The notes below the pieces were generated by a model that worked only from the letters and a program-made list of their open reading frames with translations, was not told the DNA's origin and searched no databases. From an uncultured archaeon (GTDB taxonomy: Archaea; Asgardarchaeota; Heimdallarchaeia; Heimdallarchaeales; Kariarchaeaceae), in NCBI GenBank assembly GCA_964645535.1, contig CAZYCQ010000028.1, positions 19,812 to 42,359 of the forward strand: DNA of 22,548 nucleotides. The letters run 5' to 3'. Shown here one piece after another: positions 22,116-22,548 of the stretch (positions are counted from its first letter, which is position 1; each line of letters opens with the position of its first letter). The position numbers were made by a program, and so were the translations under genes.

Positions 22116-22261
22116 TCAAGTTTGGATGTATTTCAATATTTTCCACTAAGTGAAGAGAAAGAAAGATAATTTCGAATGAAAAAAGGGTTTGAATTTTCGG
22201 ATGTTGATGAGAAGGCACAAAGAAAGACTAAATCAAGAAAATGGAATCACAAAGAATCACA

Positions 22262-22284
22262 TCCATTGGAAATAAAGGGGTTCA
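22262..22284 (+). other. ORB-like element 1 (Orc1/Cdc6 origin recognition box) TCCATTGGAAATAAAGGGGTTCA
   Basis: Matches the archaeal ORB pattern TCCA-nn-GGAAA-nnnn-GGGG with dyad core and G-string; repeated at 22386. Confidence 0.75.
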
Positions 22285-22385
22285 TTTTAGTTTGAAATGA
22301 TGATTTCTTATGGGACAAGGCCAACAACAAAGAATCACAGGAGAATAAAGGCCACAAACAAATATATTTGTATTTTTCCATATTT

Positions 22386-22408
22386 TCCATGAGAAATAAA
22401 GGGGTTCA
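22386..22408 (+). other. ORB-like element 2 TCCATGAGAAATAAAGGGGTTCA
   Basis: 21/23 identical to element 1, same orientation, 124 nt downstream. Confidence 0.75.
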
Positions 22409-22471
22409 ATCACAATAAATCACAACAATTTACAACAATTACAACAACCTACAAGAATCACAAGAATAACA
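22408..22471 (+). repeat. Seven phased degenerate repeats, consensus AATCACAA, period 9-10 nt
   Basis: Units start at 22408, 22418, 22428, 22437, 22447, 22456, 22465; further AATCACA copies at 22245, 22255 and 22333. Confidence 0.8.
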
Positions 22472-22548
22472 GATGATATTGAAATATGGAAATCGATTAA
22501 AAATTATGAGAGAATTTAGGAAATATCCATTTATGAACAAAGACGATT

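Follow-up and report, generated by a model that had tools for sequence, protein, structure and literature searches.

The closest described counterparts of the locus analysed here are the ORB-based replication origins of other archaea. The oriC1 origin of Sulfolobus/Saccharolobus has the arrangement ORB3–DUE–ORB2, is bound by Orc1-1 and carries within the DUE an 11-bp motif, ucm, which is bound by UBP, a protein reported only in Sulfolobales and Desulfurococcales (PMC12141716). At this origin, MCM is directed by opposed Orc1-1 monomers to the stretch that separates them. Opposed ORB/mini-ORB pairs of opposite polarity have already been described in archaea (PMC6742236), and TTCC/GAA core motifs are required for Cdc6 binding in Pyrococcus (PMC1904270). 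For the Asgard archaea, our literature search found no experimental mapping of ORBs or of an origin; the origin of Odinarchaeum is a guess from skew only, and complete Heimdallarchaeia genomes have been said to suggest an absence of bidirectional replication (PMC11291895).

We analysed a stretch of 22 548 nt (the window) that lies on contig C28 of a 3.62-Mb genome (G000; other C numbers denote further contigs of this genome). The nearest named relatives of its argS are Kariarchaeaceae and Heimdallarchaeota LC_2, in agreement with the Asgard host assumed in the original prediction, which had read the right-hand end of the window as a replication origin. The comparisons described below suggest, with a probability of about 0.8, that the intergenic gap at this end is part of the main, Orc1-1-type origin from which a Kariarchaeaceae archaeon replicates its chromosome. 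The gap (IG1) would be one of two non-coding parts of an origin zone, with a second gap (IG2) as the other. The features of IG1 and its flanks are as follows.

20505–22115, minus strand: left flanking gene, a membrane-anchored protein with bacterial TSP3 repeats (Pfam PF18884), outside the putative origin.
22116–22496, no strand: IG1, the complete intergenic element of the putative origin, 381 bp, 69.6% AT.
22169–22180, minus strand: inverted mini-ORB core 1, without G-string, 8.1 bits, 81 bp left of ORB1.
22245–22261, plus strand: two AATCACA heptamers, 10 bp apart, abutting ORB1, invariant in four species.
22262–22281, plus strand: ORB1, dyad core and G-string, 31.6 bits, top matrix match genome-wide.
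22303–22314, minus strand: inverted mini-ORB core 2, without G-string, 9.2 bits, shuffle p 0.02, 71 bp left of ORB2.
22315–22385, no strand: candidate MCM-loading/unwinding spacer of module 2 (predicted function), 69% AT, one heptamer at 22333.
22386–22405, plus strand: ORB2, dyad core and G-string, 27.7 bits, second genome-wide.
22408–22471, plus strand: heptamer array, with perfect copies at 22408, 22418 and 22456 and degenerate 9–10-bp units between them.
22497–22548, minus strand: probable 3' end of an uncharacterised gene X (∼220 amino acids), its body on C161, in-frame join with a 3-nt overlap.

A non-coding stretch of at least 430 bp had been proposed; the gap measures ∼381 bp, and the last 52 nt of the window are very probably coding and form the C-terminus of the minus-strand gene X, continued on C161. 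The last frame of C161 runs in frame into these 52 nt, so that IG1 is complete at 22116–22496, and the joined product aligns with the C-termini of the homologues in three congeners (G001, G002 and G003). Gene X matched no NCBIfam family. Contig C28 ends at 22548 without the 55-nt assembly overlap. Logan contigs of the probable source run (a hot-spring metagenome) match the window DNA up to 22365 and end there without a loose end, and are therefore uninformative on the DNA beyond. The AT-richness noted earlier holds to a modest degree, with 69.6% for IG1 against 61.9% for the window; 17% of the intergenic regions of the genome are equally AT-rich. A perfect 11-nt AT-rich inverted repeat (22129–22139 and 22476–22486) brackets the element; conservation of its left arm is partial, and the TSP3-repeat gene may have its promoter there.

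A homologue search with argS yielded a bridging Logan contig from a closer relative of G000 (argS 73% identical; the Logan relative), and the gene order across the gap is visible on this one contig. A thermosome scan of metagenomes returned distant loci only, and an exact look-up of the left flanking protein gave no match. To the right of the gap in G002 and the Logan relative lie gene X and then DUF655, rpoF and rpl21e; the short contig of G001 extends rightwards as far as gene X. These genes occupy the place where the gap, taken as a left arm, had been expected to continue into inverted ORBs and a cdc6 gene beyond the window, and the expected inverted ORB is absent; no orc1/cdc6 gene was found within ∼18 kb to the right of the gap on the Logan contig. 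In G000, DUF655–rpoF–rpl21e sit on C161, and the order C28–C161–C156–C59 was inferred from synteny, with ∼0.6 kb and 3.2 kb missing at junctions. The counterpart of IG1 measures 455 bp in G001, 471 bp in G002 and 478 bp in the Logan relative. Genes for the A/V-ATPase I and C subunits (L264:3766–6917), which lie between the counterparts of C156 and C59 in the Logan relative, are unmatched in the G000 assembly (an assembly gap). The rpl21e–rpoF–DUF655 operon of G003, together with the second gap (L092:8378–11775), is inverted with respect to the other species; ORB1 is lost in this genome and its two heptamers remain.

The two co-oriented 23-nt repeats on which the original prediction was built (22262–22284 and 22386–22408) are 91% alike and 124 bp apart, and none of 100 shuffles of the window produced such a pair. 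Their identity as ORBs is borne out by a weight matrix trained on relatives only and on forward ORBs only, for which they are the top two sites genome-wide; the maximum in the reversed-genome control was 19.0 bits. Both sites carry the G-string and dyad core of oriC1-type archaeal origins. The 16-mer common to both repeats, which was to be counted genome-wide, occurs twice in the entire genome, both times in the window. A scan of 185 579 genomes with the 23-nt ORB pattern, which contains the TTCC/GAA core motifs, returned 31 archaeal versus two bacterial records. The element is kept in G001–G009 beside differing genes. Both full ORBs of IG1 are co-oriented, with no inverted full ORB in G000, G001, G002 or the Logan relative. 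Tandem ORBs are common in other archaea (20 pairs among the archaeal matches), and on these comparisons what is particular in Kariarchaeaceae is the doubled asymmetric unit with heptamers, rather than tandem ORBs as such.

A third, single ORB of 25.9 bits is present elsewhere in the genome (C93:4162–4500; also L098, L026 and L101), at a site common to G002, G011 and G014. It adjoins DNA that is close to the least stable in the genome, has no heptamers and no skew switch, and is a candidate dormant origin or regulatory Orc1 site. A good ORB that lies beside extremely AT-rich DNA without a strand switch serves as a negative control and implies that a single ORB is insufficient for an origin. An intergenic 27-bp direct repeat with G/C strings (C20:24038–24190; copies 112 bp apart) likewise has no skew switch across it.

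G-strings of canonical origins point away from the unwinding element (nine outward versus three inward pairs in other archaea, and ten of ten ORB pairs in the sister family), so that the right-pointing ORBs of IG1 would be right-hand arms with their partners to the left, inside the window. Cores of inverted mini-ORBs are found there. Core 1 keeps its offset of −92 to −94 in six genomes (G000, G001, G002, G007, G009 and the Logan relative). The 71-bp gap of core 2 recurs in G002 and becomes 76 bp in G006 and 87 bp in G008; the core is degenerate in G001 and G007. An inverted core is located 81–99 bp upstream (start to start) of 13 of the 18 full ORBs across the family, compared with 0.15 expected from the intergenic background, in genomes that are kin and with cores that are weak in G000 (8–9 bits) and undetectable in some relatives. 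Opposed ORBs and mini-ORBs around a short spacer, a relaxed form of the oriC1 arrangement, are thus seen family-wide at these 13 sites and weakly in G000 alone. Two weaker ORB-like matches had also been pointed out. The match at 22171 fails as a forward ORB (−2.1 bits), and the same bases form the conserved inverted core 1; the match at 22141 scores −19 bits or worse, is not conserved and is noise. The spacers are 67–69% AT and lie at the 13th–34th percentile of helical instability over most of their length, and stronger candidates for an unwinding element are present to the right of ORB2 and in IG2.

The heptamer AATCACA occurs six times in ∼220 bp, the densest cluster in the genome (the next best has three in 300 bp), and all six copies keep their position in four species while the spacers diverge. 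Its likeness to ucm is limited to the ACAA stretch. An 11-bp motif near several origins proved to be scattered and no commoner than a control, and was dropped. A small unclassified winged-helix-like gene (C3:62503–63015; L280–L302) occurs in 35 of 41 genomes of the order; all 11 genomes of the Kariarchaeaceae family that were searched have it, beside an ORB in one only. The protein that it encodes is only a candidate for the heptamer binder.

G000 contains three orc1/cdc6 genes, on C50 and C12; none is on the contig of the window, and the adjacent orc1/cdc6 gene that is usual, although not obligatory, at oriC1 is absent. The C50 initiator scores 335 bits with Sso Orc1-1 and 307 with Ape ORC1, versus 138 with Orc1-3 and 94 with ORC2, and its recognition-helix and wing motifs are identical to those of Orc1-1; by these sequence criteria it is the Orc1-1 orthologue. 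This Orc1-1-clade initiator is accompanied by an MCM gene (C2:68988–70760), a frame of 1071 amino acids in which ∼360 inserted codons, probably an intein, interrupt the Pfam MCM domain.

Strand bias was scored at synonymous sites, with two states, A and B. Each of the 120 G000 contigs considered (3.41 Mb) keeps to one state, apart from at most three weak internal switches in all. When ordered on the Logan contig, C28 is in state A (33 of 37 genes) and C156 with C59 in state B (21 of 24 genes; p 2e-9), and the unbroken Logan contig displays the same A-to-B switch (p 6e-4); the strand-bias p-values are overstated because the compared genomes are kin. The 633-kb contig of G003 has its change point at 172–194 kb (50% interval; block p 0.0004–0.005, with the same reservation), and its ORBs lie at 188.4 and 191.8 kb. 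With a resolution of ∼3 kb in G000, the switch marks a replichore boundary whose direction, origin or terminus, is read from gene orientation. State B holds most genes in 60 of 83 contigs (p 6e-5) and carries the 23S rRNA gene and the main ribosomal-protein clusters, with ∼10 of the 16 ribosomal-protein genes recognised by eye. We therefore take B as leading, and on this reading the A-to-B change corresponds to an origin. The skew inflection that was to be looked for near the ORBs thus exists as a strand-bias switch across the zone, and it supports the proposed origin function. The argument from gene direction stands as a count, with 13 of the 19 complete CDSs pointing left (argS, gatD and the thermosome were checked), and does not discriminate in favour of an origin, since leftward genes also predominate over the ∼11 kb to the right.

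The presumed leading strand is C/T-rich (C>G, T>A), intergenic DNA included, with a GC polarity opposite to that of G015, in which it is G-rich, and to the usual GC skew. tRNA genes are commoner on strand A (21 versus 13). Orthologue-based transfer of the strand state to G003 was uninformative, the genomes being too rearranged. With 26% of it sampled, the complete chromosome of G015, from the sister family, falls into opposite halves at its ORB by raw GC skew (p 0.002), by the direction of its genes (p 0.017) and by GC skew at four-fold sites (p 0.01); its orc1 gene is 10 kb from the ORB. [quoted passage not shown] The clearest internal B-to-A switch of G000 is on C83 near 5.7–6.0 kb (codon LLR +52/−20) and is a candidate terminus or recent rearrangement. 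A search of G000 with a crude pattern found no dif-like site, and the 16S gene is absent from the assembly (not assembled). The tRNA genes of G000 centre local flips, whatever the tRNA strand, that are A/C-rich on the left and G/T-rich on the right (for example C75:6955, C29:3019, C7:23445 and C16:27063). These were seen at 31 of 37 tRNA genes by GC skew and at 34 of 37 by TA skew (mean shifts of +0.28 and +0.27), fade within a few kilobases and are not evident at five tRNAs of G003 C8.

The duplicated unit of IG1 consists of an inverted mini-ORB, a 70–80-bp spacer and a full ORB with an outward G-string. If IG1 belongs to the main origin, then by analogy with Sulfolobus oriC1 a monomer of the C50 Orc1-1-type initiator would bind in a fixed orientation to each full ORB, and binding to the inverted core would be weaker. 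Initiators facing each other in this way would place a head-to-head pair of MCM hexamers on the spacer. Forks would then depart in both directions. The AATCACA repeats, paired one helical turn apart beside the ORBs, may bind a second, helper protein with a role like that of UBP at ucm.

The second gap, ∼3.3 kb to the right of IG1, is 788 bp long in the Logan relative and mostly unassembled in G000, and its presence leads to a variant of this model. The zone would be the same, with IG1 an accessory Orc1-binding cluster (an enhancer, titration or looping site) and with loading and melting in IG2. IG2 contains the 70-bp window of lowest stability in the 31-kb Logan region, in a very AT-rich tract on the dyad side of its ORB, and in G003 it contains the second least stable one of the 633-kb contig. 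The four genes between the gaps have an intermediate codon bias, slightly leading-like for a leftward fork, which would fit initiation at IG2; because they are intermediate, the strand switch is not assignable to one gap. Separate ORB clusters are also known, in Pyrococcus dp1 and as H. hispanica oriC2D, and the sister family has a gap with a single ORB plus repeats 2–6 kb from a canonical AT-rich pair. Against this, the IG2 ORB is single, weaker (18 bits in the Logan relative) and without an inverted partner there, the fixed spacing of 70–87 bp in IG1 would be expected of a loading site and not of a sponge, and the operon between the gaps is inverted in G003. We regard an accessory role for IG1 as possible but rather doubtful, and lean slightly towards helicase loading in IG1 over loading in IG2 only.

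Readings that deny this zone its role as the main origin fare less well. Replication might start mainly from many tRNA-linked sites, with the ORB cluster a minor or vestigial origin: the sharp AC-to-GT flips do centre on tRNA genes and no such local flip is found at the ORB gap, but contigs keep one long-range state across the flips, which fade within a few kilobases and are not evident at the five tRNAs of G003 C8, so that this has a low probability. The polarity could instead be reversed, with A leading, forks converging here and the ORBs either a relic or an Orc1 site associated with the terminus. In favour of this, A is G-rich, as leading strands classically are and as in G015, tRNAs prefer A, and the genes to the right of the site point towards it; genes overall, the 23S rRNA gene and the main ribosomal-protein clusters nevertheless favour B, the T>A excess on B has the same sign as a non-significant trend in G015, and G003 has two orc1 genes ∼60 kb from its ORB site, making such a terminus improbable. 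That the element is a transcription operator of the TSP3-repeat gene, bound by Orc1 or another regulator, would account for its position directly upstream of this gene in four species. It is very improbable, as the gene adjoins the element in this genus only, the same module and layout stand beside unrelated genes in five other genera and the strand-bias switch would be left unexplained. Finally, the contig-end position and the short repeats might recall the end of a mobile element, a CRISPR remnant or a non-coding RNA, the first two of which had been named as grounds for abandoning the prediction. There are two long repeats only, where an array would have at least three regular repeats with unique spacers, no further copy in the genome and no nearby transposase, Rfam has no match in the element, and conserved chromosomal genes flank both sides in relatives; the chance that any of these explanations applies is close to nil.

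An origin at this locus would offer limited surprise, since the core machinery is conventional. It gives defined substrates (ORBs, inverted cores, heptamers, the cognate Orc1-1 and MCM) for in vitro tests of how an archaeon closely related to eukaryotes loads its helicase, and of whether a weak inverted site suffices for this. Budding-yeast ARS elements combine a strong ACS with a weak inverted B2 site about one MCM double-hexamer length away, and are used by a heterohexameric ORC in a nucleosome context. The pairing of a strong initiator site with a weak inverted one is alike in the two systems as an analogy only, the sequences being unrelated. A tentative and rather speculative proposal is that Kariarchaeaceae swapped a symmetric two-ORB origin for tandem asymmetric modules (∼70–80 bp, ACS/B2-like) under a heptamer-binding protein, with one bidirectional zone and a pyrimidine-rich leading strand. 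If the leading strand is indeed pyrimidine-rich, plain GC-skew plots would misread the replichores.

With the Pyrococcus/Thermococcus oriC, the locus shares a mixture of full and mini-ORBs and two clusters a few kilobases apart with genes between them; there, cdc6 lies between the clusters, the second of which is in dp1, whereas here it is DUF655, rpoF and rpl21e (PMC1904270). Haloarcula hispanica has outward G-strings at oriC1 and, in oriC2D, a precedent for a separate regulatory ORB cluster, but its full ORBs are symmetric and co-located with a dedicated cdc6 (PMC3936714). The sister family of the same order (G015 and G020, complete at 3.08 and 3.33 Mb) is similar in its ORB sequence, in two ORB gaps some kilobases apart, in a repeated CACA-type word and in the skew split at the site. 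Most of its members differ in having a symmetric outward pair 156–160 bp apart beside the small winged-helix gene, with orc1 1–10 kb away and a G-rich leading strand. Sulfolobus oriC1 resembles the present locus in the ORB core with G-string, in an initiator of Orc1-1 type, in an additional word repeated within the origin and in opposed boxes on either side of a short spacer (the whole ORB3–DUE–ORB2 region there spans 130 bp, each module here ∼105–115 bp). Here, in contrast, each pair includes one bare core, the unit is tandemly duplicated, the spacer is moderately AT-rich, six heptamers stand in place of one ucm and orc1 is not adjacent. Being oriC1-like without a symmetric pair of full ORBs and without an adjacent orc1, the putative Kariarchaeaceae origin is best classed as an oriC1 variant.
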